A stretch of 64,000 nucleotides of DNA. Source: Candidatus Fermentibacterota bacterium (lineage in GTDB: Bacteria > Fermentibacterota > Fermentibacteria > Fermentibacterales > JCC-6). Positions 7,871 through 53,299 of the stretch are shown piece after piece; position 1 is the stretch's first letter, and every line of letters starts with the position of its first letter. Under the pieces are notes generated by a model, which worked only from the letters and a program-made list of their open reading frames with translations, did not search any database and had not been told where the DNA came from. The stretch covers positions 6,914 to 70,913 of the forward strand of contig WJMA01000062.1 in NCBI GenBank assembly GCA_014728175.1, given 5' to 3'. The translations under genes and the position numbers were made by a program.

Positions 7871-10840
7871 CTACATGTGATCGGGTAGGGTTATGGCCAT
7901 TTCCTCGCCGTCTATCAGCGCCGATCTCACACTTTGCAGGAACGGGGAGAAGGCGCTTTCCTCCCGGTAATAGAGGTCCTCCTGCATTCGCTCCAGGGAT
8001 CTCTGTACTTCGTACGAGGCTTGCTCGCCCCCCGCCAGCTCGGTCAGGGCTTGCCTGGATTCCTGCATACGATCCACGAGCAGCTCCACGGCCGATGACG
8101 CTTCGGGAGGCATTCCCCAGCACAGGGAGGAGAGAAACAGGTAGTACAGCTCCACCCTGAGAAGCTGAACGTTAGCATCTTCGGAATACTCCCGCGCATA
8201 GCTCTCCACGGTGGACACGGCAAACTCCAGCATGCTTCCCTCCAGCCAAGGCAGCCGTCCGTTATCCGCCAACGCGTAGGTGGGGCCTCCGATTTCGATC
8301 CTGCTCTGGCGCAACGACCTGACCAGACTGTCGGGAACGCTGGGGCTGAAATCCCCTACGGCCATCGAGACCAGTGATGCGAGCCTCCGGTCCATGTCCA
8401 GGAGAGATGTTACGGCGGTAAGGTATCCCGTATGCCATTCGCCTTGGAATGCCTGGGAACGCGCACCCGATATTATTACCCGCAAATGGTTTAGGTTGCC
8501 CGGCCAATGCCCAATATGGGAGTAACCGTCGTAGTAAGCGAAATTGTTGTATTGCAAGAGAGTCCGGAGGCCCTCCAGCTCGCCCCTGCGAGTTCTGATA
8601 ACTCCCGTGACGTACTGAAGGGTAACCGGATTGTGCTCCACTCTGGATGCCAGCTCCCGAGCGTCATCCAGCAGGCCTAGGGTATCACCTTGGTGCAGGC
8701 GTTCCACCAGCTCCGCCGACTGGAGGGTTACGTCCGCGTACAGATGCAGCGAGGAGTCGGACAGCAGCGGCCGGTTGGGGAGGACATCGGCGGCGTAGTC
8801 GGAAAGAATCTCGACCACCTCGTCCGCATTCTCCCGGCCGCGGTACAGGGTGAAGATGAAATGGTTTGCGATTGCCCGTCTTACGGCCGGGCCTTTGTGC
8901 AGGCGGCCGCTCTCGATACTACGCTTGTAGTGATTCAGATAGCCCAGCCACAGAATTATGCGGGCGTCGGAGAAATCCATTATCGGCCCGAACATGAGCA
9001 TTTGCTTGTGGTACTCCCGTGCTCGGTGACCGTACAGCTCGTAAGCCCTCAATAGGGCGTCCACGGACTTGTCCAGCCTGCCGAGTCTGGTATAGGCCAG
9101 GGCGATGTTGTTATGGACCTCCGCATAATCCGGAGCCCTGGCTCTAAGTGAATCGTAGCAGGCCAAAGCCAGGACGGTGAGGCTGTCCGACAGCCTTTCG
9201 TTATCGGATTCCGCGCCTACCCTTTCCAGGAAGGTCTTGATTATCTCGCTGGACGGCTTGGCGGTTATGGCCCTGGTTATGTAAGCGCTGCCCAGGGCGT
9301 ACCATCCGCCCAGGTTGTCAGAATCGACCTGCACGCACATCCTGCAGTTCTTTATGGCGCTGTCGGCCGCGCCCACCGCGTTCTGCCAATGATACAGCGC
9401 CTCCCGAACATGCTCTCGGTTGCCCGTCTCCAGCGCCCGCGAGGCCGCGACCTCCGCGTTGCTCATCTCGGGCTTGGTGTGTACCAGATGTACGTCCTTT
9501 CCCCTGAATAGAAGTCTTCCCGAACGCATGCCGGCCAGGTAATGTGGAATCGTCAACACCGCCAGAACGGCCACCGGAACGATTGCGGCGATCCCCATGC
9601 CCCTGGGTATCGGCCTCGACGAGCGTTCATCGTTTACCAGAATAAGGCCTACGAGCAAGGCCGTCAGGAACTGGGTTGGAGGCCACCTGAGGGCCACCGA
9701 TACCGTCCCCTCCAGCAGTATGCCAGCCAGTGCGGCCAGCAGCCCGATCCTGCAGATGGACCAATCGGTCTTCCTCCTGACGGTTCGCCATACCATCAAT
9801 GCCGCTGCCAGCCATAGCAGGGCCCCTACCATCCCGGTGTCGCTCAGGATCTCCAGGTACTCGCAATGAGCGTGAAGAGTATTGTGACTGACGCCGAGTA
9901 GATGATAGGAGGGGTTTCTGTACCTGGGAAAGACGATCTGGAACGAGCCCGGACCCCAACCGGTGAGGGGCTTGTCCGCGAACATCCCAACGGTACCCGA
10001 CCAAATGAGCTTCCTTACCCTGAGCGTGCCCTGGTCGCTGGTATCGAGCTCGGCCAGGCGGTTGCGCATCAGGTAGACTCCCAAACCCATAACGCAGATC
10101 GCTACGAGTAGGACGGGTACCAGTGATTTGGCCGAGAACTTCTTTCTGAACAGCCCCCACAGCAGGACTGCGAGCCCCCCGAACAGCCCAATAAGGCTAC
10201 CCCTGGTTCCGCTGGCCACGATCGCCACCACGGCCAGAAGACAAAGCACCACCATTAGAACGGCCTTCAGCGCAGTTCTGATCTTCCTGCCCAGAAGAAA
10301 ACCCAGGCCCAGGGGAACGCTTGCCGCGGCGAAGCTGCCCAGAAGGTTGGGGTTTCCCAGGGATCCGGAAACCCGACCGCTCTTGGCCAGAGCCTCATCC
10401 CAGGGCATCAGGCTTACGCCCCGCCATTGCAAAAGGGAGTAAACGAAGAGCAGCAGGCAAGAGCCCAGTATCACCCAGACCACGCGGTCCCTGTCTTTCT
10501 CGGTAAGCATGATGGAAACGCATAGGGCGAGAGCACCCAGGGCGATAAGAGAGAAGATGGCTCCGGGGCCGTTCACGGACTGCGCTCCCAGAAAATGGGT
10601 CAGTACGCTCCAGCCTGCGATGGCCAGGCCAATCATCCCTATGGGGAGAAGCGTTTTGACCGGTATCCCGGATATCTTTCCCCCCAGAATCCCGCCCGCC
10701 AGGATCAGCAGGCACAGCAGGGATCCCGTTACGGCGGCGAACTCCTTCACCAGTATGCTGGAGCGGCTGTTGGGCTCCACAACGAATACCACAACCAGCA
10801 GGATGATTGATAGCAGAGCGATCAAGACCTTGCGTTCCAT
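7871..10840 (-). CDS. O-antigen ligase (Wzy_C/WaaL-like) family membrane protein fused to a large C-terminal TPR-repeat domain
   Basis: About 12 TM helices with the SGTRGS motif typical of O-antigen ligase-like proteins, followed by ~550 aa of TPR-like repeats (ALAYTRLGRLDKSVDALLRAYELY...). Start taken at MERKVLIALL. Overlaps the 3' end of the wecA-like gene. Confidence 0.75.
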   Translation of the reverse strand: MERKVLIALLSIILLVVVFVVEPNSRSSILVKEFAAVTGSLLCLLILAGGILGGKISGIPVKTLLPIGMIGLAIAGWSVLTHFLGAQSVNGPGAIFSLIALGALALCVSIMLTEKDRDRVVWVILGSCLLLFVYSLLQWRGVSLMPWDEALAKSGRVSGSLGNPNLLGSFAAASVPLGLGFLLGRKIRTALKAVLMVVLCLLAVVAIVASGTRGSLIGLFGGLAVLLWGLFRKKFSAKSLVPVLLVAICVMGLGVYLMRNRLAELDTSDQGTLRVRKLIWSGTVGMFADKPLTGWGPGSFQIVFPRYRNPSYHLLGVSHNTLHAHCEYLEILSDTGMVGALLWLAAALMVWRTVRRKTDWSICRIGLLAALAGILLEGTVSVALRWPPTQFLTALLVGLILVNDERSSRPIPRGMGIAAIVPVAVLAVLTIPHYLAGMRSGRLLFRGKDVHLVHTKPEMSNAEVAASRALETGNREHVREALYHWQNAVGAADSAIKNCRMCVQVDSDNLGGWYALGSAYITRAITAKPSSEIIKTFLERVGAESDNERLSDSLTVLALACYDSLRARAPDYAEVHNNIALAYTRLGRLDKSVDALLRAYELYGHRAREYHKQMLMFGPIMDFSDARIILWLGYLNHYKRSIESGRLHKGPAVRRAIANHFIFTLYRGRENADEVVEILSDYAADVLPNRPLLSDSSLHLYADVTLQSAELVERLHQGDTLGLLDDARELASRVEHNPVTLQYVTGVIRTRRGELEGLRTLLQYNNFAYYDGYSHIGHWPGNLNHLRVIISGARSQAFQGEWHTGYLTAVTSLLDMDRRLASLVSMAVGDFSPSVPDSLVRSLRQSRIEIGGPTYALADNGRLPWLEGSMLEFAVSTVESYAREYSEDANVQLLRVELYYLFLSSLCWGMPPEASSAVELLVDRMQESRQALTELAGGEQASYEVQRSLERMQEDLYYREESAFSPFLQSVRSALIDGEEMAITLPDHM

Positions 10841-16191: not shown

Positions 16192-16290
16192 GACCGGTAC
16201 GCCCCTCTTCCGATACCGACCTCAGGCTCCACACCAACCTCCCATGAATAACCCTTGAGAGCCCCGTTGAAAAGAGAAACGAAGAGAAGC

Positions 16291-17129
16291 GGGACGTTCA
16301 TAAAGAAATTGGTTCTTCTCCGGAAAAGTGAGTTGATGTAGTAGCTGGTAGATAAGTGACATCGGTACATCCAATCTGTATCTAATTCAAAAGCCGTGAG
16401 TTAGATCACAGAGAGGAGCACCGATGTCGTTGTTGAGTATAGCGAAGTACTTTCCCTGGAGTCGAGTGGTGGTTACGGGTCAGAAGTTGGAGGCTTCATC
16501 CGTGGTCACAGCGATGCGCCCGGATCGGCGTTACAGAATTGTTTGCAGTCGCTGTGGTGGTAATGTGACGAGGACGAGTTCGCACCACGGTAGGAGGGTC
16601 AGGGATTTGGATCTGGGCGGTTGTCGGTCCGCGATAGAGCTCACCTACTGCTAGGCATACTGCCGGGATCGTGGATGTGTAGTGGTGGAGGATCCTGGAG
16701 TGGTAGTTCCCCGGAGGCGGGTAACCCGGCGGTATGCGATATACATCCATGAGTGATGCAGGATGATGACTGTATCAGACGTATCCCGTCACCTGGGTTT
16801 GGACTGGAAGACGGTGAAGGAGATCGATAAGGCCTTCCTTGAATAGGAGTACGGTAAGACGGACTATTCCAATCTTCGTCTGCTTGCGGTGGATGAGATA
16901 TCGAACCTTCGGCGCCACAACCACATGACGGTGGTGTTGGACTACGACAGCGGGCGTGTGGTATGGATGGGTCTGGGGCGTCGCACCGAGACGCTTGAGG
17001 CCTTTTTCGCTGGCATGACGCAGTCTCAGCGAGAGTCTATCGAAGCTGAGGATCAAGTTTTCTTTAGTTTCTTTGTAAACGTCCCGCAATATCTCAAGTA
17101 GATAACTTTAATTGCTTTATGAACGCCCC
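16291..17129 (+). mobile_element. Decayed, internally deleted ISL3-family insertion sequence bounded by 15-bp inverted repeats (GGGACGTTCATAAAG / CTTTATGAACGCCCC)
   Basis: IR-L at 16291-16305 and IR-R at 17115-17129, with 14/15 complementary. Lower GC than surroundings. Encloses ISL3-type transposase fragments. Abuts the wbaP stop codon. Confidence 0.75.
16424..17101 (+). pseudogene. ISL3-family transposase pseudogene (N-terminal zinc-finger and HTH regions; in-frame TAG at ~16842; DDE catalytic domain missing)
   Basis: Fragments RIVCSRCGGNVTRTSSHHGRRVRDLDLGG (zf-ISL3), VSRHLGLDWKTVKEIDKAFLE*EYGKT and LLAVDEISNLRRHNHMTVVLDYDSGRVVWMGLGRRTETLEAFF are hallmark ISL3 transposase segments. Total coding length ~225 aa versus ~400+ aa in intact members. 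Confidence 0.75.
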
Positions 17130-17133
17130 GTAG

Positions 17134-18560
17134 TTAATAGGCACCCCTGCCTTTGAATATGGTCAGAACGGTTCTAATCAGTATGACGAAGTCCAGCATC
17201 AGCGACTGGTTTCGGATGTAGTAAAAGTCGTACTCGATATTCTCGTGCAGCGGCAGGTCCTTCCTGCCCATCACCTGCCACAGGCCGGTCATGCCGGGCT
17301 TGGCGTCCAGGCGGTGCATCTGCCATCGCGCGTAACTCTTCACTATGAACGTCATCTCCGGCCTGGGCCCCACCAGGCTCATGCTGCCGCTCAAGACGTT
17401 GAACAGCTGGGGCAACTCGTCCAGGCTGGTCTTGCGCAGGATCCTGCCGATGAACGTGACCCGGGGGTCGCCCTTCTCCAAAGGCGCCACCTCGTACTCG
17501 TCCGCCTCCGGTTTCATGGTGCGGAACTTATAGAGCGTGAACTCTTTGCCTTTAAGGCCGACTCTCTTCTGCTTGAATATGGGGCTGCCCTTGGTCGTCA
17601 GCAGCAGGATGAGGTAGATCACCACCAGCAGGGGCAGTAGAAGCAGTATCAGAAAGGCCGAGCAGAGCAGGTCCATCGTTCTCTTGAGGAACCGTTGAAA
17701 GAGCGAGGGTCTTCCGTATCCGATCTCGATTATCGGAATCCTGGAGAGATCGTCCAGATCGGTCTTGCCGGTGGCGATCTCGAAGAGGTCGCTCACCAAT
17801 CTGAAGTGTACGTCCTTCTTCCTCACGGTGGATATGATCCCCAGCATCTTCGACCTCTCCAGCTCCGGTGAGGCGAAGAAGACCTCGTCGGCGTCGTGGC
17901 TCTCCACCAGCCGGTGAACGTCGGCCAGGGTTCCGATGACCGGGGCGCCCTCGAACTCCTCCAACTCATCGTCCGGCCGCAGGGTAAGCACTCCGGCTAT
18001 CTCCGGGGCCGGTTCCGGTAGCTGTCTGATCTTCCTTATCACCCGGCGGGCCACATCACCCGTCCCCACCACCAGAATCCTGGGAGCTATGCGAATGGGC
18101 GCTATGAGCTGGGCCAGCTTCTTCGCCCCCGCCCTGGCCATGACGGTCAAGGGCAGGGAGATGATTATGAACATCAGCATCATCAGCCGGGAGTAGTCCT
18201 TCTTGACCAGGTAGCTCGCAGCCATCAGGGAGACGCCCAGGATCAGTAGGGCCTTGATTATCCGCTGCATTCTCCTGACGCTTCCCCCGTACCGACGAGG
18301 TCGATACAGACCGTTTACGCCGAAGCATACCAGCCACAAAATCACTATCACCGGAAGCGTCGGCAGGTACACCGATAGATCGTGGTGGAAGTAATGAAGC
18401 AGGTCCCTCAGAATGGTGTTCCTCAGCCAGAACGTTACTAAAAGGGCCACCGGGGCGGCTATCACGTCGGCAAAGACCAGGAGAACCGCCAGTACCCTGT
18501 CGGCTCTTCTTGCCGGAGCTAGCAAGATTTCCTCCAGAAACGAACGAGTCCCATCGTCAT
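17134..18560 (-). CDS. wbaP: Polyprenyl-phosphate hexose-1-phosphate transferase (WbaP/CpsE-type initiating sugar transferase)
   Basis: N-terminal TM helices, a central Rossmann-like region, and a C-terminal bacterial sugar-transferase domain ([18 protein letters not shown]). True start is unclear (no ATG). A TTG/CTG start near 18530-18560 overlaps the upstream GT2 stop. The ORF-track N-terminal extension to 19029 is rejected. Confidence 0.82.
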
Positions 18561-19481
18561 CCCGGCCAACAGGGCCGCCCCCCGACAGAGTGCGAACGCC
18601 GGGACCATCGGCGCCACGGCCGTATCGACTGCCAGCGTCACCCGCACCAGAGGCAGAGTGGTTATCACGAATGCCGCCAGCCACATCAGTGATAGATAGG
18701 GCATCATCGCCGAGGAGACCAGTACCGGCAGCAGCAGAGATATCAACACCAGCTGCACCTTGAGCATCGCCGGAGTGTACGAATCCGAGGCCGCCTTTCC
18801 CGGGAAACTCCGCACCACTTTCATCCTCCACTTCCCCCGAGACAGTTTCATCCTGAGATATGCGATCCAGGTAGGCTGGTGGCGATGCGCCACCCGCGCC
18901 GGCCGATGGAAGACCAGCCTGTATCCCGCAGTCTTCAGTCGGTAGGAGAGATCCACGTCCTCGTGATCCGGAAGGGGAAAGGACTCGTCGAACCCTCCCA
19001 CCGATTCCAGGGCCTCCCGGGTGAAGCATGCCGAGTAGGTGTCGACCAGATCTACATCTTCGCTCCGGGAAAGCAGCCTATACCGCTCCTCGAACTCCAC
19101 CTGGGCCAGCCGCTGGATCGTTCTCCGGCCTCCGCGGCTGTAACTTCCCTTGACTCCTCCCACTCCGGTCCGCATGGCCCTAAGCATCTCTTCAGCCCAC
19201 GAAGGCTCCGGAACGCAGTCGGCGTCGGTGAACATGACGTAGGGCAGCTCGGATGCCCTCCATCCCCTGTTTCTGGCCGCGGCCGGCCCAGAACCGGGCC
19301 CCGTGAGTACCAGGTCGACCAACCGCCTCACGCCCTCCGGGGGCTCCCCACGTCCGTCTATGGAAACCACTATCCGCAGCTTTCCTCTGATCGTTTGGGC
19401 ATTCAGCGCCTCCACGCAGTCCCGAAGGTTGGGATCGTCGGGCAACGAAGGCACCACCACGGCCGCTACTTGCTCCGACAT
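18519..19481 (-). CDS. Glycosyltransferase family 2 with C-terminal transmembrane helices (HpnI-like architecture)
   Basis: GT-A fold motifs (VVVPSLPDD, FTDADCVPEPSW, DxD-like DHEDVD) and ~3 C-terminal TM helices. Confidence 0.82.
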   Translation of the reverse strand: MSEQVAAVVVPSLPDDPNLRDCVEALNAQTIRGKLRIVVSIDGRGEPPEGVRRLVDLVLTGPGSGPAAARNRGWRASELPYVMFTDADCVPEPSWAEEMLRAMRTGVGGVKGSYSRGGRRTIQRLAQVEFEERYRLLSRSEDVDLVDTYSACFTREALESVGGFDESFPLPDHEDVDLSYRLKTAGYRLVFHRPARVAHRHQPTWIAYLRMKLSRGKWRMKVVRSFPGKAASDSYTPAMLKVQLVLISLLLPVLVSSAMMPYLSLMWLAAFVITTLPLVRVTLAVDTAVAPMVPAFALCRGAALLAGMTMGLVRFWRKSC

Positions 19482-35409: not shown

Positions 35410-35943
35410 ATGAAGGTTAGGGAAATCTGGTTCCCGTCGCTGGTGGCGCTGATGCTTCTGCTGGGCGGCTGCGGCGAGGACGACCCGTTCGGCCCGGGCG
35501 ACTGGCACAGCGCCCAAAGTTCCGGAATAGCCCTGGAATGGAAGGTCGACGGCGACGATCTGGCAGTAAGGCTGACCGCCCCGTCCACCGGCTGGATAGC
35601 CGTGGGCTTCGACCCCGAGTCCGGAATGAGAAACGCCAATATCATAATAGGTTACGTCGATGACGATGGTCACCATCTGCGGGATGACTTCGGTACGTCC
35701 CAGAGCTCTCACATGTCCGACCTCAGCCTCGGAGGCTTCGACGATGTAACCCACGAGGATGGCTACGAGGAAGGCGACGAGACCCAGATAGAGTTCGTGA
35801 TTCCCCTGGACTCCGAAGACATCTACGACAAGCCCCTGTCGGAGGGGCTAACCTACACCGTGCTTTTGGCCTACGGAGAGGACGGAGCAGACGACTTCGA
35901 GTCCCAGCACGAGCTATGTACCAGCATGGAGATAGAGATATAG
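35410..35943 (+). CDS. DOMON-like (putative heme/sugar-binding beta-sandwich) lipoprotein, paralog 1 of 4
   Basis: Lipobox LLLGGC. Conserved blocks shared with the three paralogs at 45.3-48.0 kb: TGWIAVGFDP, M..AN(I/L)IIGY, RDDFGT, SH, LGG, YDK, LLAYGEDG.DDF, H. The fold assignment comes from the motif pattern, not a search. Confidence 0.65.
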   Translation: MKVREIWFPSLVALMLLLGGCGEDDPFGPGDWHSAQSSGIALEWKVDGDDLAVRLTAPSTGWIAVGFDPESGMRNANIIIGYVDDDGHHLRDDFGTSQSSHMSDLSLGGFDDVTHEDGYEEGDETQIEFVIPLDSEDIYDKPLSEGLTYTVLLAYGEDGADDFESQHELCTSMEIEI

Positions 35944-38938: not shown

Positions 38939-39068
38939 CTCACACTTCCTCTCATGAGAGTATTTCAGTAAGCGAGGTAAATCAAGTAGACGACTAATAA
39001 GCCATTCATACAAAAACTTACTACAAAATTACATGCACAATCCAACGACCAAAGGCAAGATTCACCCG

Positions 39069-39127
39069 AGGGACGTTCCTAGCTTTCTGGGCTTTTTCGG
39101 GGTTTTTGAGTTTTTTGAAAACGTTCC
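39069..39127 (+). repeat. Solo-TIR remnant related to the MITEs at 50.5/52.0 kb
   Basis: AGGGACGTTCCTAGCTTT followed by a T-rich stretch and AAAACGTTCCG. The first 14-18 nt are near-identical to the left TIR of both MITE copies. Confidence 0.5.
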
Positions 39128-39237
39128 GCAGTCGGGTTTGCCCGCGGGGGGAAAGGTTTGTATCCTTTAGCGCGTAGGCAGCTATCGCGGTTTTGGACGA
39201 TTGAGATCGGGGATGATAATCTGGGAGGGGGCACGGC

Positions 39238-39711
39238 ATGGATGCCGAGCTGGAGAAGATAGCCCTTCAGGGAAGCTGGACGGACCGGGACTCCGACACC
39301 TTATCCGACGAGGCCAAGGAAGACACCATCGGCGACAGGCGGAAGTACATATTCTACTGCCCGTACTGCGACCAGGAGTTCGTCACCGATAAGCGTTACC
39401 GGGTCACCGGAAACGTGATCAGCGAATCCGTGAAGACCGGATGCTTCTGGAAGATGCAGGAACTCATCTGGGAGACCTTCTACCGGATTCCTCTCATCGG
39501 CCATTACCTCGGAGAGCGGGCCGAGCGCAAGGTGGACGAGAGGGAGGACCGCATGGAGGACAAGAAAGACCGCAAGACCCTCCTCGAGGCTTTCGAAGAG
39601 GTCAAGGGCAACTTCGTCCAGTGCTCGAAGTGCGGCCGGTACACCTGCGAGTCCTGCATGCAGGAAGCTGTCTGTGGCTTCTGCCGAGACGGCTTCTCCC
39701 CCGAGGAATAG
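39238..39711 (+). CDS. Hypothetical protein with two zinc-ribbon-like Cys clusters
   Basis: CPYC…(N-terminal) and CSKCGRYTCESC…CGFC (C-terminal), a charged central linker and a good RBS (GGGAGGGGG). No recognised family. Confidence 0.55.
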   Translation: MDAELEKIALQGSWTDRDSDTLSDEAKEDTIGDRRKYIFYCPYCDQEFVTDKRYRVTGNVISESVKTGCFWKMQELIWETFYRIPLIGHYLGERAERKVDEREDRMEDKKDRKTLLEAFEEVKGNFVQCSKCGRYTCESCMQEAVCGFCRDGFSPEE

Positions 39712-45345: not shown

Positions 45346-45906
45346 CTATTCGGCCGACTTAATGCCGGCCCAGGTAAGGCCGTCGAAGGACAACGCCCAT
45401 ATCTCTATTTCCGTGCTGGTTACAAACTCGTGCTTGGTTGTGAAGTTGTCCTCGCCGTCGGCCCCCCGAGCCAGCAGCACCGTGTAGGTGTTTCCCGGGA
45501 CCAGCTGCTTGTCGTACTGGTCTCCAGAATCCAGGGGAATGGTGAAACGAACCTCCGTCTCCCCACCGCTCTCCGAGCCTCCGTCGAGAAGAACATCATG
45601 AGTTCCGCCCAAGGACGTGTCGGCATCGTGCGAGAAAGTCTGATAGCCGTAGTCGTCCCTGATCTCGGTGCTTTCCGTGGTTACGTACCCGATAATCATG
45701 TTTGCACCGAGCATCATGGACTCGGGATCGAAACCAACGGCTACCCAGCCGGTGGTGGGGCCGGTGAGCTCCACGGCAAGCGAGTCCCCGGGTTGAGTGG
45801 TCCATCTAAGCGTAAAACCCTCAATCTCGAGCCCTTGCCATCCTTGGCCTAATGCGCTGCAGGGTAAAAGACAAAACAGAAATATCAACAGGTAGAGCTT
45901 CTTCAT
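45346..45906 (-). CDS. DOMON-like lipoprotein, paralog 2 of 4
   Basis: MKKLYLLIFLFCLLPCSALG lipobox. Conserved blocks TGWVAVGFDPESMMLGANMIIGYV…RDDYGYQTFSH…LGG…YDK…LLARGADGEDNF…H. Confidence 0.65.
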   Translation of the reverse strand: MKKLYLLIFLFCLLPCSALGQGWQGLEIEGFTLRWTTQPGDSLAVELTGPTTGWVAVGFDPESMMLGANMIIGYVTTESTEIRDDYGYQTFSHDADTSLGGTHDVLLDGGSESGGETEVRFTIPLDSGDQYDKQLVPGNTYTVLLARGADGEDNFTTKHEFVTSTEIEIWALSFDGLTWAGIKSAE

Positions 45907-46033
45907 AAAAACACCTCGAATTTTCGGATTGTAATTCACGACCCCGACACTAGGAACATATCGGTTTGGGTTTGGCAATCCAATACCGCTCTCATGCGAA
46001 AGCACCATCCCCGAATCTTCTGCGGAGGTCTGA

Positions 46034-46795
46034 TCAGAATGAGAACATCCTGCGAATCGAGAAGCCGAGGAAAAGCCCATCGTGGGCCGTTCCGCTGAGC
46101 TGATCCGCCATTCCGATGCCTTGGCTGTTGCTAAGAGCGACGATGAACTGATGCCCCCACGTAGTCGCTCTTATACCGAACGAGAACGCATCCTCCGCGA
46201 GAATATCACTCGGAGTGCCTTCTTCCTCACGATCCAACACCGGGAAGAACTCCCCCGTCACGCTCAACTTATCCACAAGCTCAACGTCCAGACCGATGCC
46301 GGGGCCGCCCCTGTCGGAGTATCCGTCGTAGCAGTAACCAACAATGGGCACCAGCCTATTCCAGAACGGACCCGAGGTAAGGGTAATCAGGCCCACAAAA
46401 TCACCCTCACGTCCCTTAACCGGGTCGATTTCCAACGACTTGAATCCCAGATATGCGTAGGTCTCCATCCCCCGGAACGGAAGGGTCTGAGACCAACCGA
46501 TCCCTCCCAAGTAACGGCTTCCGGACCTTACGTGGCCCAACCTAACGTCCAACCGGCGCCAGGGAAATAAACGTAGATCAACTCCCACGTTCGCACCAAC
46601 ATCCATGCCGAAGAAATCTTCGAAAGGATCCTCACCGAAGGCCTCCCCGTAGAACCTGTGGTCAACCCGCAGCTCCAGGCTCCCCGTCTCCACCTCCGTG
46701 TAGGGCACTCTCAGGTTAAGCATCCCCCTCTCGAAGCACGTAGCTACGGCCGGAAAGACCAAAAGAATCAGCATTATTCGCATTACGTTGCCCAT
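46034..46795 (-). CDS. Outer-membrane beta-barrel protein (C-terminal Phe; DUF5777-like) embedded in the DOMON-like lipoprotein cluster
   Basis: Signal peptide, 250 aa of alternating strands, C-terminal …FLGFSIRRMFSF OMP-type terminus. 5-8 nt from the upstream paralog stop, so co-transcription is likely. Confidence 0.55.
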   Translation of the reverse strand: MGNVMRIMLILLVFPAVATCFERGMLNLRVPYTEVETGSLELRVDHRFYGEAFGEDPFEDFFGMDVGANVGVDLRLFPWRRLDVRLGHVRSGSRYLGGIGWSQTLPFRGMETYAYLGFKSLEIDPVKGREGDFVGLITLTSGPFWNRLVPIVGYCYDGYSDRGGPGIGLDVELVDKLSVTGEFFPVLDREEEGTPSDILAEDAFSFGIRATTWGHQFIVALSNSQGIGMADQLSGTAHDGLFLGFSIRRMFSF

Positions 46796-46802
46796 GGCCG
46801 AG

Positions 46803-47369
46803 TCAAATTTCCAGGGAGACGGATTCTGCGTAGACATGCCCGGAGCTGAAGTCGTCTGCACCGTTAGACCCGTAGGCGAATATCACCGCGTAGGTCGTTC
46901 CCTCGACCAGGGCTTTATCGTAATCGTCGCCCGAATCCATCGGTATGCGAAACTCTATCTGCGTCTGGATTGGATCGCTGCCTTCCGAACCCTTCACCAA
47001 CACGATATCATGGGTGCCGCCCAGGGTGGTGTCCGCGTCGTGTGAGGTCTGCCCGGTTCCGAAATCATCCCTGATCGATGTGGAGCCAGCAGAGACGTAG
47101 CCGATTATCAGGTTGGCTTCGCTCATGAAGGATGTGGGATCGAAGCCCACCGCGACCCAGCCCGAGGTCGGAGCGGTTATCCTTGAGTTCAATTCGGCCA
47201 GGGAATCATCGACCATCCACTCGAAGGTGACGTCGTCTACGGAATACTGATTCCAGCCCTCCTCGTTCTCGGAGGGCCCAGTCGAATCGCCACAGCCGGC
47301 TAGCACAATACCAGCCGCTGCGATAAGGACCGTCACTCTCGAAACCAATAGCCTGCTCATGATATCCAT
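46803..47369 (-). CDS. DOMON-like lipoprotein, paralog 3 of 4
   Basis: MDIMSRLLVSRVTVLIAAAGIVLAGCGD lipobox. Conserved blocks SGWVAVGFDPTSFMSEANLIIGYV…RDDFGTGQTSH…LGG…YDK…IFAYGSNGADDF…H. Confidence 0.65.
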   Translation of the reverse strand: MDIMSRLLVSRVTVLIAAAGIVLAGCGDSTGPSENEEGWNQYSVDDVTFEWMVDDSLAELNSRITAPTSGWVAVGFDPTSFMSEANLIIGYVSAGSTSIRDDFGTGQTSHDADTTLGGTHDIVLVKGSEGSDPIQTQIEFRIPMDSGDDYDKALVEGTTYAVIFAYGSNGADDFSSGHVYAESVSLEI

Positions 47370-47394
47370 CCTTCCCATCTTCCCTTCGGGGGAG

Positions 47395-47961
47395 CTAAAG
47401 CTCGATCTCGACCTTGACCACCCAAACGTGGTACTCGTCGAAATCGTCCGAACCGTCCTCCCCGTACGCCAAAAGCACCTCGTGGAGGCTCCCGGGTACC
47501 AGTTCGGTATCGTATTCGTCCCCCGATGACAGCAGCTTGGTGAAGGAGATGGTGGTTCTGCCATCCTCTTCAGATCCGGTAACGTCGATCAAATCACTGG
47601 TTCCACCCAGCTCGGTATCGGCCCGGTGAGACGTGTGGCCGGTTCCATAATCGTCCCTCAGGAATACCTCCCCGCCAGAAAAGTAGCCTATCATAAGGTC
47701 CGCATCCTTCATGGCTGCCGTTGGGTCGAATCCGATAGCCACCCATCCAGTGGTAGGAGCGGCCATGGTGACCCTGAGACTGTCACCCCTTGGATAAAGT
47801 GATAGCTCGAAACCATCCATGGTAATATCATGGTTTTCAACTACTTCCGGCTCGCTTTCCGGCTCCGATCCCTCTGCGGGGCGTCCCGAAGCCGCTCCTC
47901 CGCAACTCCCAAATGCCGCCATTAGACCCAGCAGTAGCAGGATCAACGAAATTCTTGCCAT
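47395..47961 (-). CDS. DOMON-like lipoprotein, paralog 4 of 4
   Basis: MARISLILLLLGLMAAFGSCGG lipobox. Conserved blocks TGWVAIGFDPTAAMKDADLMIGYF…RDDYGTGHTSH…LGG…YDT…LLAYGEDGSDDF…H. Confidence 0.65.
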   Translation of the reverse strand: MARISLILLLLGLMAAFGSCGGAASGRPAEGSEPESEPEVVENHDITMDGFELSLYPRGDSLRVTMAAPTTGWVAIGFDPTAAMKDADLMIGYFSGGEVFLRDDYGTGHTSHRADTELGGTSDLIDVTGSEEDGRTTISFTKLLSSGDEYDTELVPGSLHEVLLAYGEDGSDDFDEYHVWVVKVEIEL

Positions 47962-48117
47962 CGTAACCTCCGTTTCAACGATAATATCATATGATTCTAC
48001 TCTAGTTAAGGCGGACTTTGGCCACCTCTTCGCTCAAACTCATCGGTCCTATATCGAGAGGTGGATTATATTCGCCTTCGTATGCGCTTGCTCGAACTGC
48101 AACCGGAGGAATCTTCC

Positions 48118-50523
48118 ATGGTCTTACTCGTGATCCTGGCTTTGCCCTTGGCAACATCCTCGGCCCCCGCCCAAACAACCTACATGGAACCCGACTCAGG
48201 GCTGGTAAAGATAGTGGATGCTCAGCTCGCTCCCTGGATCAGTATCTCGCCCGACTGCAGATACTGGGCCCTTAGAACGCCATTACGCCATCCCTCCATA
48301 GCCGAGCTGGCCCGGGAAGAGCTGAAGCTGGCCGGGTTGCGCTTCAGCCCTGCGACCTACGCACCCACCAGAAGAACCAGGTACATTGGCATTGAGCTTA
48401 TGGAATACCCCGGTCTCGAGGTTCACAGCGTATCCGGACTGCCGGATAACCTTCGAAGCCTGAGCTTTCGCTGGTCTGCGGACGGCGCGAAGCTGGCCAT
48501 GACGAACGAGACCTCCGAGGGAGTCGAGTTGTGGGTCCTAGATGCCGAGAAGGCGGAGTCAAGAAGGATTCTGGGGCCACACGTCAGCCTCGCGGCTTAC
48601 GAGATGCCCCTGTGGCTTCCCGATGGCTCGGGTCTCGTTTGCTGCACCGTACCGGAGGAACGAAGCGGCCCTCCGGGTGAAGATCCGGTACCCGCCGGAC
48701 CGGTGATCCGGGAGACCTTCGGTGAGGAGGCGCCGGTAAGAACCTTACAGGACCTGTTGGAGGACCCACACGACAAGGACCTATTCGAGTATTACCTAAC
48801 CTCGCAATTGTCCATCGTGCGCCTGGACGGGACTGTTGAGCGCATCGGCCGACCGGGGATGATCTGGGCTTATCTCCCATCGCCCAACGGCGAGTACCTC
48901 CTGGTCGAGCGGCTCCACAGGCCCTTCTCCTACTCCGTCAACGCCTGGAGGTTCCCCACCACCATCGAGGTGTGGGACATGGAAGGCAACGTGGTCCTCG
49001 AGCTGGCCGACCTTCCCCTGAGAGAGGAGATACCGATAGCCCGGGGCAGTACCTACAAGGGACCCAGAAGCGTTGATTGGCGGAGCAACACCGATGCGAC
49101 CCTGTGCTGGGTGGAGGCGCTGGACGAAGGCGATGCAGGTTCGGAGGCCGAGCTGCGCGACCGGGTGTTCTCTCTACAGGCTCCGTTCGACTCCGAGCCC
49201 CGCCAGCTCATGGACCTGGAGTACAGGTTCGGGGGCATAGACTGGGGGAACGATTCACTCGCATTGGTCTCCGAATGGTGGTGGGTAAATAGAAGGTACA
49301 GGACCTGGCGGATAAGGCCCGGCCGGGATCGATGCCGACCGGAGCTGGTTCTGGACTACGTGTGGGAGGACAGGTACAACCATCCCGGCAATCCTCTGCG
49401 GAAGCGCAACGACCGCGGTCATCTGGTCCTGGTAGTCTCTGCGGACGGTGGATCGATCTACCTTCAGGGTAGAGGTGCATCGCCCGAAGGGAATAGGCCC
49501 TTCCTGGACCGTCTCGATCTGGCCACCCTGCAAAAAGAGCGGCTCTTCCGATCCCGGCCCCCATTCTACGAGCAACCGATCAGACTCGTCGACGACAGTT
49601 ATACCGAGCTCCTGTTGCGGCGGGAGTCCCCCGAGCAATACCCGAACTACTACGTCAGGAATCTGGAAAATGATACGGAGAGCCAGGTTACCTTCTTCGA
49701 AAATCCATTCACTCAACTCCAAGGCATGCACAAAGAGCTTCTCACGTACGCTCGAGGAGACGGCATCGAGCTATCCGCCATGCTCTACCTTCCCCCCGGT
49801 TACGATCCCGGCGAAGGCCCTCTTCCTCTGATAATGTGGGCCTATCCCCAGGAATACAGGTCCTCCGCCGCCGCCAGCCAGGTGAGCGGGTCGCCCTACG
49901 AGTTCGATTACCTCGACTGGTGGTCCCCGCTGATCTGGCTTACCCGCGGTTATGCCGTTCTCGAAAACCCGGCCATGCCCATAGTCGGCGAAGGCGACCG
50001 AAAGCCCAACGACGATTTCGTGCCCCAGCTGGTGATGAGTGCCAGAGCGGCCGTAGACAAGGTGGTCGATATGGGCGTAGCCGACCCCGATAGGATAGTT
50101 ATCAGCGGGCATTCGTACGGTGCGTTCATGACCGCCAACCTGCTGGCGCACTCCGACCTGTTCTGCGCAGGTATTGCCAGGACCGGTGCGTACAACCGGA
50201 CCCTCACCCCATTTGGCTTCCAGAGCGAGGACAGGTCGCTGTGGGAGGCGACAGACGTCTATGTGGAAATGTCTCCCTTCATGAACGCAGACTCCATAGA
50301 GGAGCCCATTCTATTGATCCATGGGGAGGAAGACCGCAACTCCGGTACCTTTCCCATGCAGAGCGAACGGATGTACGAAGCGCTGAAAGGGCTGGGCGGC
50401 ACCGCCAGGCTGGTTATGCTTCCGCTGGAGGGCCATTGGTACGAGGCCAGGGAGTCGGTTCTGCACGTGGTCTGGGAGACCCAGCAATGGCTGGACGAGT
50501 ACGCATCCCAGGGACGTTTCTAG
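48118..50523 (+). CDS. Prolyl oligopeptidase family S9 peptidase (beta-propeller + alpha/beta hydrolase; acylaminoacyl-peptidase/DPP-like)
   Basis: C-terminal catalytic domain with nucleophile elbow GHSYGAF, downstream Asp/His regions (…HGEEDRN…; …EGHWY…) and an N-terminal propeller. Start could be GTG 48061, ATG 48082 or ATG 48118 (signal-peptide-like MVLLVILALPLATSSAPAQ). Confidence 0.85.
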   Translation: MVLLVILALPLATSSAPAQTTYMEPDSGLVKIVDAQLAPWISISPDCRYWALRTPLRHPSIAELAREELKLAGLRFSPATYAPTRRTRYIGIELMEYPGLEVHSVSGLPDNLRSLSFRWSADGAKLAMTNETSEGVELWVLDAEKAESRRILGPHVSLAAYEMPLWLPDGSGLVCCTVPEERSGPPGEDPVPAGPVIRETFGEEAPVRTLQDLLEDPHDKDLFEYYLTSQLSIVRLDGTVERIGRPGMIWAYLPSPNGEYLLVERLHRPFSYSVNAWRFPTTIEVWDMEGNVVLELADLPLREEIPIARGSTYKGPRSVDWRSNTDATLCWVEALDEGDAGSEAELRDRVFSLQAPFDSEPRQLMDLEYRFGGIDWGNDSLALVSEWWWVNRRYRTWRIRPGRDRCRPELVLDYVWEDRYNHPGNPLRKRNDRGHLVLVVSADGGSIYLQGRGASPEGNRPFLDRLDLATLQKERLFRSRPPFYEQPIRLVDDSYTELLLRRESPEQYPNYYVRNLENDTESQVTFFENPFTQLQGMHKELLTYARGDGIELSAMLYLPPGYDPGEGPLPLIMWAYPQEYRSSAAASQVSGSPYEFDYLDWWSPLIWLTRGYAVLENPAMPIVGEGDRKPNDDFVPQLVMSARAAVDKVVDMGVADPDRIVISGHSYGAFMTANLLAHSDLFCAGIARTGAYNRTLTPFGFQSEDRSLWEATDVYVEMSPFMNADSIEEPILLIHGEEDRNSGTFPMQSERMYEALKGLGGTARLVMLPLEGHWYEARESVLHVVWETQQWLDEYASQGRF

Positions 50524-50647
50524 CTTTTTTAGCTCTTTTGGCTTTTCTTCAAACCCACTTCCGTATGAAAGTCTTGAGTTTCATATAGTAAAGGCAGATT
50601 AGGAGTTAGCGAGGTGCTTTAACTTCTTTAGGAACGTCCCGGAGTTA
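50504..50647 (+). mobile_element. MITE-like element copy A (~144 bp) with terminal inverted repeats GGGACGTTTCTAGC / GGAACGTCCC and an internal hairpin
   Basis: Left TIR 50511-50524, right TIR 50631-50640 (exact reverse complement of GGGACGTTCC). Internal hairpin TATGAAA…TTTCATA at 50564-50585. ~90% identical to copy B. Overlaps the last codons and stop of the S9 peptidase gene. Confidence 0.7.
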
Positions 50648-50649
50648 CG

Positions 50650-51954
50650 CTAGATGTAGGCCATGTCTTTGAACCACTTTGCTTTATGATCTCCAACCTC
50701 CACGGGATCCGGTATGGCTACGGGAACCGTGGCCCAGTACGTCCGCACATTCTCAACCTGGGTTCTGTCGGGAGCTAGCCTGCTATCCTCGTCCTCAAAT
50801 CCCTGGGACAGATCGTACCCCCACGCTGAGTCAGCATCAGCATCCCACAGGACTTTGGCATCACCGAAACGAACCGCCGCTCTCTGCTTCAAGCCCGTGT
50901 TTACACCACTGGAGGGAACACCTTCGTGCCCGACGCCGTCAGTAGGAAGAAGAGAGACGCCCTGAACGTAATCAGGAACAGAACCCTCAGTCAGGTGCAT
51001 TAGGGTAGGAAGGATATCGTACTGGCCCACTACGTCATCAACCACTGAATCCTCGGGAATCCCGGGACCGCTCATGATGAGGGGAACGTGGATGGTTTCT
51101 TGGAAGAACTGCCGGCCATGGAACATCATTCCGTGATCAAGGAATTCTTCGCCGTGATCGGCCACCACCACGATTATGGTGTTCTCATCCAACCCTCTCT
51201 GCCTTAAACCCGCAAACAGCCTGCCCAACTCGCGATCACAGTAGCGAATCTCCATGTCGTAGCAGCTCATCATATCGTGCATCTCGCGCACCGTGATCCG
51301 GCCGTTCGCGTTCCGTCTTCGGATCGAAGAGGCCGATACGTTGGCCAGATCCTGCGGACCATCAGGTGCCGTATACGGCCAGTGGGGATCGAAGAAATGG
51401 GCAACGATGAAGAAGGGTTGCTCTATATCGCCGTCTACCCACTCGAAGATTCTATCTACGACCACCTCGGCATCGACCGTCTCCCTGCATCCCTCCACGT
51501 CGTAGCTTTGACAACCCCGGGTAAAACCGTACTCCACGTCCATGACCGGAGCGTTGAATATGCCGAAGGTAGCGTAATCCATCTCCGAGAAGAGATCGGG
51601 TAGGGTACTCAGCTCTCTTCCTATTCCGTACAAATGTTCCCCCCTGGTACCGGCCAAATGGGCCCTCTCTGTGACGCCAGTAAAAATCGAGGTCATGGAG
51701 GGAAGGGTCCAGGAGCTCTGTGCCTGGCAGCAGCTCCATCTTACGCCCTCCGAAGCAAGGCTATCCAGATGATCGGTTATCTTCCCATCGTATCCATAAC
51801 AATGAAGATGGTCCGCTCTGAGGGTATCGATGAGAACTAGGAGTACGTTCGGTCTTTTGCCGTCGCTCGAGCAGCCGACGAGCAACGCGGTCAGAAAAAG
51901 AATAGAACATCTGAGCACGCGGTGATTAGAACCAACGATGTAATGGGTGATCAT
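50650..51954 (-). CDS. Sulfatase-like hydrolase (alkaline phosphatase superfamily); canonical CxPxR formylglycine motif not evident
   Basis: N-terminal metal-binding PNVLLVLIDTLRADHLHCYGYD. Core sulfatase-domain blocks (…GRQFFQETIHVPLIMSGPGIP…YDILPTLMHL…). The position expected for C-x-P-x-R reads SSWTLPSMTSIFTG. Confidence 0.75.
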   Translation of the reverse strand: MITHYIVGSNHRVLRCSILFLTALLVGCSSDGKRPNVLLVLIDTLRADHLHCYGYDGKITDHLDSLASEGVRWSCCQAQSSWTLPSMTSIFTGVTERAHLAGTRGEHLYGIGRELSTLPDLFSEMDYATFGIFNAPVMDVEYGFTRGCQSYDVEGCRETVDAEVVVDRIFEWVDGDIEQPFFIVAHFFDPHWPYTAPDGPQDLANVSASSIRRRNANGRITVREMHDMMSCYDMEIRYCDRELGRLFAGLRQRGLDENTIIVVVADHGEEFLDHGMMFHGRQFFQETIHVPLIMSGPGIPEDSVVDDVVGQYDILPTLMHLTEGSVPDYVQGVSLLPTDGVGHEGVPSSGVNTGLKQRAAVRFGDAKVLWDADADSAWGYDLSQGFEDEDSRLAPDRTQVENVRTYWATVPVAIPDPVEVGDHKAKWFKDMAYI

Positions 51955-52028
51955 GTCCTACCTAAAAATTCCCTCATCAAGTGGATGATTCAGGTCACAA
52001 CCTTGGCTCACCTTGCCGCTCGGTCAAC

Positions 52029-52171
52029 CATCCCTCAGGGACGTTCCTGGCCTTTTTAGTTTTTTTGGCTTTTCTTCAAACCCACTTCCGTATGGAAACC
52101 TTGAGTTTCATATAGTAAAGGCAGATTAGGAGTTAGCGAGGTACTTTAACTTTGAGAACGTCGCGGAGTTA
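52029..52171 (+). mobile_element. MITE-like element copy B (~143 bp), same orientation as copy A
   Basis: Left TIR GGGACGTTCCTGGC 52038-52051. Degenerate right TIR GAGAACGTCGC 52154-52164. Internal hairpin TATGGAAAC…GTTTCATA. Terminal GGAGTTA supplies the TAA stop of the adjacent OMP gene. Confidence 0.7.
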
Positions 52172-53299
52172 GAAGTAGTACGATGTGGTGACGTAGTAGA
52201 CGTCCGCGTATGAGCCCAGGTCTTCGCTATCGGAGCCGAAGCTGAGCTGTGAGCCCACCCCCAGGAAGACGTTCTGGGCAATGCTGTAGTCGACGGAGAG
52301 CATACCGTAGGCGGACGGTTCCTCCAGATTGACGAACCCGCTGGGAGTTACGGTCAGCAGAGGGGAAGCCTGCCAGCTCAGACCGTGGATCAAGTATTGG
52401 CTTCCGTTCAGGTAGACGTTCGGCCCCTGCCCTAGCTCGCGTGCTCTGTGAGACGAGTAGTGGTACTCGATCTGGCCGTAGAGGTCTGCAGCCAGCCTGT
52501 AGTCGGCTCCCAGGCTTGCCCTTAGCATGGTCTCCCCCGCCCGTCGTGACATCCCCCCGAGGAAGGTGCACGTTCCGTCGAACCAGACGCTGGCTCCTCC
52601 CGCCGCCCTCGACGCGTTGCAGCCCAATACGATGTCCCGCCTGTGGACGCCCACTATCAGGTCGATGTCCGATCGGGCTACGTAGTTGTGCAGTCGGGCG
52701 TAGATCGCGCTGCTGTCGGGAGCTGCGTGGTACCCCGAGACTACTCCCAAATCCAGTTCCGAGAAGAGCCCGAGCGGTACCCTTGCTCTCAGCGCATCGA
52801 CTCCCTGTCTGTTCTCGCTCTCCAGCTGGTTGAACGGGTAGGGTGCAAGGAAATCGCTCGGAGACACGAAGTGGGCGGTACCCCATGAGACGGCCTGTCT
52901 ACCTGCGATGACATCGGCAAACGAGAGCCTCAGTGTGGCGTTGAGTCTGTCGATGTTGGACAGAACGGCGAAACTCGTGGCGCTGTCGACATGCTCCGGG
53001 TGAAGGTAGAGGTCTGGGTCGGAGACCCGCAGCCCAGTTCTCCCCGAGTCACCCCAGAGTCTTCCGTCGCGAACGGTAGGCAAGAGGACGTACGCCCCCT
53101 CCAGCCGCAGGGTTCTCGAAATCCTGATACCGGATTCAAGGCGCAGAATACCTTGCCACGAGCCCGCCTCGCACAGGCTATCGTTTGGAAGGAGAGTATA
53201 TAGGGCGTAGCTCTTCCAGTGTCCGGCCAACCCTACCGGCGCGGCAAGGGCCGGAGCGAAGCAGAGCAGAAGAGCTAGTGCGCTAAGCCTTCCTCTCAT
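52169..53299 (-). CDS. Hypothetical outer-membrane beta-barrel protein (C-terminal …TTSYYF)
   Basis: Signal peptide MRGRLSALALLLCFAPALAAP. 376 aa with strand-like periodicity and a C-terminal Phe. Last gene of the TetR/LolA-like/ABC operon. Confidence 0.5.
   Translation of the reverse strand: MRGRLSALALLLCFAPALAAPVGLAGHWKSYALYTLLPNDSLCEAGSWQGILRLESGIRISRTLRLEGAYVLLPTVRDGRLWGDSGRTGLRVSDPDLYLHPEHVDSATSFAVLSNIDRLNATLRLSFADVIAGRQAVSWGTAHFVSPSDFLAPYPFNQLESENRQGVDALRARVPLGLFSELDLGVVSGYHAAPDSSAIYARLHNYVARSDIDLIVGVHRRDIVLGCNASRAAGGASVWFDGTCTFLGGMSRRAGETMLRASLGADYRLAADLYGQIEYHYSSHRARELGQGPNVYLNGSQYLIHGLSWQASPLLTVTPSGFVNLEEPSAYGMLSVDYSIAQNVFLGVGSQLSFGSDSEDLGSYADVYYVTTSYYF

Follow-up and report, generated by a model that had tools for sequence, protein, structure and literature searches.

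The 64,000-nucleotide stretch of Candidatus Fermentibacterota DNA analysed here (the window; contig WJMA01000062.1 of assembly GCA_014728175.1) contains two related elements, copies A and B, which lie in direct orientation on either side of a sulfatase gene, between an S9-family peptidase gene and a gene for a 376-amino-acid (376-aa) putative outer-membrane protein (OMP). They probably represent an undescribed family resembling transposable elements of the miniature inverted-repeat type (MITEs), whose members are 69-141 bp long, AT-rich, non-coding, bounded by inverted termini and confined to a narrow clade within Candidatus Fermentibacteria. The members of the family are dispersed over the window and related contigs and vary in size within this range; they have conserved ends and a drifting centre and are found near the 3' ends of genes; one of them is interrupted by an insertion sequence (IS), and the site of copy B is occupied by an element in two relatives as well. 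These features agree with the definition of bacterial MITEs in the literature (PMC2229807). Calling the family MITEs is reasonable, though the proof is incomplete; the elements are an ordinary kind of bacterial repeat and involve no new mechanism.

Structure of copies A and B

Alignment of 50504-50647 with 52029-52171 gave 93% identity by column, BLASTN gave 88% identity over 146 nt, and an ungapped core of 117 nt (50509-50625 and 52036-52152) is 92% identical, in agreement with the approximately 90% over about 140 bp estimated in an earlier interpretation made from the letters alone (the sequence-only reading). The 23-mers and 30-mers conserved in the two copies each occur twice in the window, the expected number being 0. 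The GC content of A and B is 42-44% vs 58.8% for the window, and both are non-coding as had been proposed, the longest open stretch in either copy being at most 32 codons over all frames. They do bracket a single gene, the sulfatase, as direct repeats. The similarity between them ends within a few bases of the flanking genes and stays out of coding sequence, so that they do not form part of a larger segmental duplication that includes coding sequence, which was the alternative named in the sequence-only reading.

The termini of copy A, GGGACGTTTCT and AGGAACGTCCC, are complementary at 10 of 11 positions, and those of copy B, GGGACGTTCCT and GAGAACGTCGC, at 8 of 11; the terminal inverted repeats had been described as perfect, and thus their existence is supported and their perfection is not. 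In predicted folds the terminal pairing extends to 12-15 bp. The two ends of the element are named T1 (GGGACGTTCYTAAAGAAGTTAAAG, facing the 376-aa gene) and T2 (CAYCCnnGGGACGTTYCTAGCYTTTTT); the core of the inverted termini is GGGACGTTYC, and about 25-40 nt are conserved at each end. The ends of copy B are more degenerate than those of copy A, with GCGACGTTCTC and a 3-nt deletion in T1. An internal hairpin, TATGAAA..TTTCATA, had also been reported as common to both copies; it is present in A, occurs in B in a shifted version (TATGGAAAC..GTTTCATA) and is lost from the copy found in a relative (contig L002, see below), so it is not a feature of the family. Tiny open reading frames (ORFs) starting at a conserved ATGAAAC, namely MKLKTFIRKWV in A, MKLKVSIRKWV in B and MKRYIPRREEPKKTKKG in the L002 copy, were considered and dismissed, as their conservation ends after MK.

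Other members of the family

A profile of the ends was built from A, B and the L002 copy only, so that the members found with it were not in the seed, and its background was set by 30 local shuffles of the same 230 kb, among which the top score was 10.4 bits. Within the window the profile matched 39064-39101 (23.0 bits, E 1.2e-5), 17136-17105 (14.5 bits, E 0.007), 16290-16310 (11.9 bits) and 17087-17061 (11.4 bits), and on L001, a related Logan contig (SRR7614767; 68% identity), it matched 223-195 (13.8 bits). Every match outscores the shuffle maximum and all are intergenic. In all, the element was located at four loci in the window, two in L001 (190-226 and 11127-11160) and one in L002, and the diverged relatives at 39064-39132, at 16289-17133 and in the two related contigs place A and B in a dispersed family.

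The 39064-39132 copy (Table 1) lies between the start of a C25 peptidase gene (39013, - strand) and an ORF beginning at 39238 (+ strand). At 16289-17133 a decayed IS sits in a nest of three T1-type ends downstream of a sugar-transferase gene (17134-19029, - strand). The end at 17048-17089 forms with 16289-16308 an inverted repeat of 20-21 nt that is 90% complementary, and the end at 17100-17133 begins 4 nt past the TAA stop of the sugar-transferase gene. The L002 contig, which comes from an IMG metagenome (IMG 3300035158), carries one copy (10273-10401) directly past the stop of the 376-aa ortholog; this copy adjoins a convergent beta-propeller gene, whose stop sits in the far terminus and which ends in T2 in the frame CGT TCC TAG, as the window peptidase does. 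The L001 contig breaks 29 nt into the element after its 376-aa ortholog. Overall, T1 ends are found 2-9 nt past the stops of four different genes.

The profile found no copy in about 100 kb of more distant relatives (L003, L010, L011 and L013-L016), indicating that the family is confined to a narrow clade. Exact scans with patterns of 20-21 nt returned nothing for GTAAAGGCAGATTAGGAGTT in genome or metagenome contig collections and nothing for ACGTTCYTAAAGAAGTTAAAG in genome contigs. In metagenome contigs ACGTTCYTAAAGAAGTTAAAG had five matches, all of them chance occurrences in coding DNA of organisms with 38-41% GC; two exact scans of viral contigs gave chance coding matches only, and BLASTN against plasmids gave nothing.

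Conserved ends and the origin of the family

Compared with the L002 copy, the T1 end (about 38 nt) is 76-84% identical and the T2 end (about 40 nt) 72-78%, and the centre of the element is 46-48% identical. The adjacent 376-aa gene has 68% amino-acid identity to its L002 ortholog in the codon alignment, and its four-fold degenerate sites are 43% identical, that is, saturated. Elements with ends recognised by a transposase typically show this combination of conserved ends, drifting centre and variable size; host selection acting on the ends would give an identical pattern.

A possible further indication of transposition comes from the pentanucleotide TACGC, which flanks copy A on both sides (Table 1) and is suggestive of a 5-bp target-site duplication; given the freedom allowed in placing the boundaries, such a pair has a 3.2% chance per copy. 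No target duplication was detected at B or at the 39064 copy, and none was seen by eye at the L002 copy.

The conservation of the ends may also be explained by function in the host. The elements could be palindromic 3'-end modules of the repetitive extragenic palindromic (REP) type, selected by the host, the ends serving as binding sites or RNA-hairpin arms in termination, mRNA stabilisation or operon punctuation, with spread that is rare or mediated by recombination and does not depend on a cut-and-paste transposase of their own. At the site behind the OMP-like gene the ends are much better conserved than neutral evolution would allow, T1 ends closely follow the stops of four genes, T2 ends provide two genes with a stop in one frame (CGT TYC TAG), and the T2 core is a small hairpin followed by T runs that a scan calls terminator-like in B; in addition, a distant relative has an unrelated palindrome with a 23-bp stem at the same spot, and REPs are known to supply genes with TAG stops and to lie less than 20 bp from the 3' ends of ORFs (PMC3733652). 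Nevertheless this explanation is unlikely: the ends form only a 10-nt near-palindrome (GGRACGTYCC, continuing as non-palindromic sequence) and not stem-loops of 20-40 bp with a GTAG/CGTC tag, no RAYT or Y1 transposase (Y1_Tnp) was found among the window ORFs scanned, the 39064 copy lies away from a gene 3' end, and one copy tolerates an IS insertion. Moreover, the hairpins of most copies are no more stable than shuffled sequence, and the strand read in transcription of the OMP and sulfatase genes has no canonical terminator.

A related proposal is that the ends of about 40 nt would be under purifying host selection and the family would be a mobile 3'-end module that brings along a hairpin, a U-rich tract and a stop codon; it would either be targeted to sites just past stop codons or be retained at them because it ends genes and punctuates operons. 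We regard this as quite unlikely; if it were true, copy B would couple the sulfatase to the upstream transporter operon.

Several observations weigh against a MITE-like family mobilised in trans. The ends are conserved at the same site although neutral sites are saturated, which could mean host selection, and host selection on the ends could fit an element that was exapted or was never mobile. Four copies are complete (A, B, 39064-39132 and L002), and a candidate target duplication is present in only one of them; a single such hit among the copies checked has a chance of about 10%. There is no clean empty site, the S9 gene of L002 being free of an element but followed by a different downstream gene. 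Hairpin stability is modest, with z-scores of -0.3 to -1.9 for the copies and strands other than the + strand of A. The approximately 58 large ORFs of the window that were scanned include no transposase or recombinase besides the ISL3 remnant described below, and an autonomous element with matching ends was found neither among the window ORFs nor in the exact-pattern scans of public collections. Finally, the copy count is that of the 64-kb window and related contigs.

Taken as a MITE-like family, the elements would have spread by means of a transposase supplied in trans, which recognises the ends and is encoded outside the window. Copy B would be an old resident behind the OMP-like gene; it is probably older than copy A because it lies at the site where L001 and L002 carry an element, and degeneration of the ends has also gone further in it. 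Copy A would be a younger insertion, accompanied by duplication of TACGC, into the space separating the S9 peptidase gene from the sulfatase gene convergent with it, and this insertion may have rewritten the last codons of the peptidase, which reads into T2. Both copies are presumably transcribed as parts of a 3' untranslated region or of intercistronic RNA, in which the termini could pair into a long hairpin, with possible effects on termination or on the stability of the transcript. That direct repeats bracket the sulfatase would then be a by-product.

The ISL3 insertion sequence

The sequence-only reading suggested that an ISL3-type transposase could mobilise the elements. The sole ISL3 gene of the window matches Pfam HTH_Tnp_ISL3 (1.2e-10) and DDE_Tnp_ISL3 (7e-8), and is a pseudogene, with three in-frame stops and truncation at about residue 210 of about 391. 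Related ISL3 copies on L012-L014 have the left repeat GG(T/A/C)TCTTCTCC(G/C)GAAA, the right repeat of L013 and L014 being its complement. The corresponding repeat of the window IS begins at 16311, inside the GGGACGTT end, indicating that the IS was inserted into a copy of the element. The region 16290-17092 (about 800 bp) was at first read as an ISL3 element with inverted repeats identical to the element ends, an interpretation ruled out by the related ISL3 copies, from which the IS repeat starts at 16311.

The IS repeat shares only 39-46% identity with the T1 and T2 ends (shuffle p 0.03-0.4), and the candidate duplication at A has 5 bp vs the 8 bp made by ISL3 elements (PMC4133298, Table 1); mobilisation by ISL3 is thus unsupported. 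The ends profile had no match on the ISL3 copies of L010, L011, L013 and L014. Some other ISL3-family member encoded elsewhere in the genome could conceivably be the mobiliser. A likeness of T1 to the Tn21-type 38-bp repeat (TAAAGCAC..GCTAA) was set aside, as that part of T1 is not common to the other members.

The bracketed sulfatase gene and its variable locus

Two direct copies around one gene had been viewed as resembling a composite transposon. However, the outer flanks of the A-sulfatase-B unit differ (TACGC vs TAGAA), the only candidate target duplication surrounds A alone, and no elements were found beside the sulfatase orthologs of L015 and L016, which are 62-68% identical and lie in unrelated contexts. 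With no bracketing duplication and with orthologs free of elements, nothing indicates that A, the sulfatase and B were transposed together as one composite unit.

It is also very unlikely that the elements are recombination sites of a gene cassette, in which case the sulfatase would have come as a circular unit with one element and recombined with a resident element behind the OMP-like gene, as integron attC cassettes or repeat-captured units do. No integrase or other recombinase is present among the ORFs scanned in the 64 kb, the order of the end motifs (GTTYYY...RRRAAC) is by inspection the reverse of that in attC (RYYYAAC...GTTRRRY), the 5-bp direct repeat at A alone fits a simple insertion of A, sulfatase orthologs occur without the element and the other family members are solitary. 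The arrangement itself speaks for such a cassette, since the two direct copies surround exactly one gene and there is one element behind each of the two genes on the - strand; so do the presence of the sulfatase at this locus in the window lineage only (L002 has the beta-propeller gene, and the L015 and L016 orthologs are elsewhere) and its GC content, which is below that of the neighbouring genes.

The sulfatase is a lineage-specific occupant of this spot. Its GC content is 54.6% vs 60-61% in the neighbouring genes, though its closest homologs are all from Fermentibacteria; the gene may have been acquired from a related lineage with a lower GC content.

The stretch between the OMP-like gene and a TPR histidine kinase gene is variable (window 45346-53299, L002:9145-16464, L003:10001-13216). 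In the window it comprises the sulfatase, the S9 peptidase and a DOMON/DUF5777/DOMON cluster, in L002 the beta-propeller gene and an S9 peptidase directly beside the kinase, and in L003 the DOMON cluster directly past the OMP-like gene. A strain with proteins more than 90% identical to those of the window was not found in the collection searched.

On L003 (GCA_964423505.1), where the OMP-like protein is 50% identical, an unrelated palindrome of about 90 nt lies directly past the stop of the gene (L003:11118-11208). It has perfect inverted termini of 23 bp (GGTCGGGCCAAGATAGCTAAGAT) and a folding energy of -54.5 kcal/mol (z -6.25), and a second, partial copy is found 4.5 kb away (L003:15631-15648). 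The Logan contig L004 breaks 29 nt into a palindrome of this type (L004:1477-1505), as L001 does in the window-type element. The L003 palindrome looks like a different family of miniature elements at the same kind of site.

Structure at the RNA level

In the consensus fold of A, B and the L002 copy, the terminal stem is the only common structure; the inner helices are not conserved, and the inner hairpin is absent from the L002 copy. One of the 29 predicted pairs has a compensatory change, and the covariation term is unfavourable (+1.46). A search of Rfam at the gathering score and at E <= 5 gave no relevant match. These results make it extremely unlikely that A and B are two copies of a small RNA gene or of a cis-regulatory RNA. 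In favour of such an RNA, A folds better than its shuffles on the + strand (z -3.1) and the central block TATGAAAC is common to the L002 copy; copy B, however, folds no better than shuffles, and no promoter-like site and no terminator on the relevant strand were identified.

A sigma-70 scan, together with inspection by eye for the Bacteroidetes-type TAnnTTTG, revealed no sulfatase promoter in or past copy B. As no promoter-like site precedes the sulfatase gene, its transcription may come from the upstream operon by read-through across B.

Genes around the elements

The coordinates of the elements and of the neighbouring genes are given in Table 1.

Table 1. Elements, candidate target duplication and genes of the window
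Feature	Position	Strand	Remarks
T1-type end GCGGGACGTTCATAAAGAAATT	16289..16310	+	cut by ISL3 insertion
Decayed ISL3-family IS	16311..17047	+	own left repeat GGTTCTTCTCCGGAAAAGTG, intact; right end missing
T1-type end (reverse complement GCGGGACGTTTACAAAGAAACTAAAG...)	17048..17089	-	pairs with 16289-16308
Further T1-type end (reverse complement GGGGCGTTCATAAAGCAATTAAAG)	17100..17133	-	profile 14.5 bits
Short member of the family	39064..39132	+	69 nt; T2 end and T1-like end, almost no centre; E 5.8e-4 by similarity search
S9-family peptidase gene	48061..50523	+	last ~6 codons and TAG stop within T2 end of copy A
TACGC, left half of possible 5-bp target-site duplication of A	50500..50504	.	
Copy A	50505..50645	-	141 nt, 41.8% GC; T2 end (ATCCCAGGGACGTTTCTAGC...) at low coordinate, T1 end (reverse complement ACTCCGGGACGTTCCTAAAGAAGTTAAAG) at high coordinate
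TACGC, right half of possible duplication of A	50646..50650	.	overlaps final base of sulfatase stop codon
Sulfatase-family lipoprotein gene	50650..51954	-	Pfam Sulfatase, 1.8e-44; between A and B
Copy B	52030..52169	-	140 nt, ~43% GC; same orientation as A
376-aa signal-peptide protein ("OMP") gene	52169..53299	-	ends ..SYYF; last gene of cluster

The S9 peptidase gene takes its TAG stop from the left terminus of copy A, as the overlap noted in the sequence-only reading implied, and its product ends in ..WLDEYASQGRF* vs ..WLESHVSN* in L002. The stop codon of the sulfatase gene (50650-50652) lies 4 nt past copy A. The "OMP" gene stops at a TAA formed by bases 52169-52171 as reverse complement, and the first of these bases is also the last one of B. 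This stop had been thought to be co-opted from the element; however, the position of ..SYYF-stop is the same in relatives that have another element (L003) or a slightly different junction, and the stop codon is judged from these sequences to be ancestral.

The 376-aa protein matched no Pfam family, even at E <= 1, and the label "OMP" is suggested by its signal peptide and C-terminal YYF. A hypothetical protein (GF402_11145) from a metagenome-assembled genome of Candidatus Fermentibacteria is 100% identical to it. Beyond its gene are encoded an ABC ATPase, two FtsX/MacB permeases, a LolA-like protein and a TetR regulator, and in Fermentibacteria the 376-aa gene is kept as the last of this TetR / LolA-like / FtsX x2 / ABC-ATPase cluster. 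Relatives of the protein, 28-38% identical, are found in Elusimicrobia and other metagenome-assembled genomes. Possibly the protein acts in the outer membrane as an uncharacterised partner of a MacB-type transporter.

Two DOMON-domain ORFs, 46803-47564 (-) and 47395-47961 (-), overlap by 170 nt on one strand, which suggests a mis-called start or a frameshift; other DOMON genes are located at 45346-46080 and 35410-35943.

Significance of the elements

The elements add a repeat family for a candidate phylum known only from metagenomes, in the literature on which no paper mentioning transposases was found. The direct repeats of 117 bp and 92% identity make the sulfatase gene prone to loss by homologous recombination, and the elements mark a variable spot, at which relatives have different genes separating the peptidase from the OMP-like gene. 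They also change the ends of genes as annotated, for example at the C-terminus of the S9 peptidase, and break assemblies, as illustrated by the two Logan contigs that end 29 nt inside such elements. No new mechanistic question is opened unless the ends prove to be host-selected.

Comparison with known systems

Among described bacterial repeats, the enterobacterial ERIC (IRU) elements of 127 bp are similar to the window elements in size, short terminal inverted repeats, lack of coding capacity, intergenic sites near ORF ends and, presumably, transcription with possible pairing of the ends in the transcript. Their effects on mRNA stability are orientation-dependent, as relayed in PMC2229807 from De Gregorio 2005. 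Unlike the window elements, which have GGGACG termini and a candidate 5-bp duplication, ERIC elements have TA termini and a TA duplication, and there is no sequence similarity between the two.

The Correia (NEMIS) elements of Neisseria also have long and short variants that share their ends, of 107 and 155 bp compared with 69 and about 140 nt here, and they are co-transcribed with neighbouring genes (PMC2229807). However, their inverted repeats of 24-26 bp, TA duplication, IHF site and promoter elements were not seen in the window elements.

The Tn3-derived TIMEs resemble the window elements in that about 38 nt are conserved at their ends, and their target duplications have 5 bp, as does the candidate one at copy A (PMC4133298). 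Recognisable duplications are missing in most TIME copies in databases, and two TIMEs, in the same or opposite orientation, were shown experimentally to mobilise the DNA between them (PMC4133298). The inverted repeats of TIMEs match over about 38 bp, whereas the two ends of the window elements match over 13-21 nt only, and the situation differs from that of the TIME-COMP structures in that the window has neither a Tn3-family transposase nor a duplication around A-sulfatase-B.

RUP of Streptococcus pneumoniae, derived from IS630-Spn1, is a non-coding element of about 100 bp with stops in all frames and an association with ISs (PMC2229807), and is in these respects comparable. The ends of RUP closely match those of its parent IS, whereas the window ISL3 does not match the element ends and no parent was found; furthermore, RUP inserts into ISs, and in the window it is the IS that lies inside the element.

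The REP and REPIN sequences, GTAG/CGTC palindromes, share with the window elements a location less than 20 bp from ORF 3' ends, between convergent or co-directional genes, termini that sometimes provide a stop codon, and an arrangement in inverted pairs with spacers of 20-100 bp (PMC3733652). The REP unit is a stem-loop of 8-13 bp with a tag, unlike the ends of the window elements, and no RAYT gene is present in the window. The location near gene stops is typical of bacterial MITEs and REPs alike (PMC2229807, PMC3733652).

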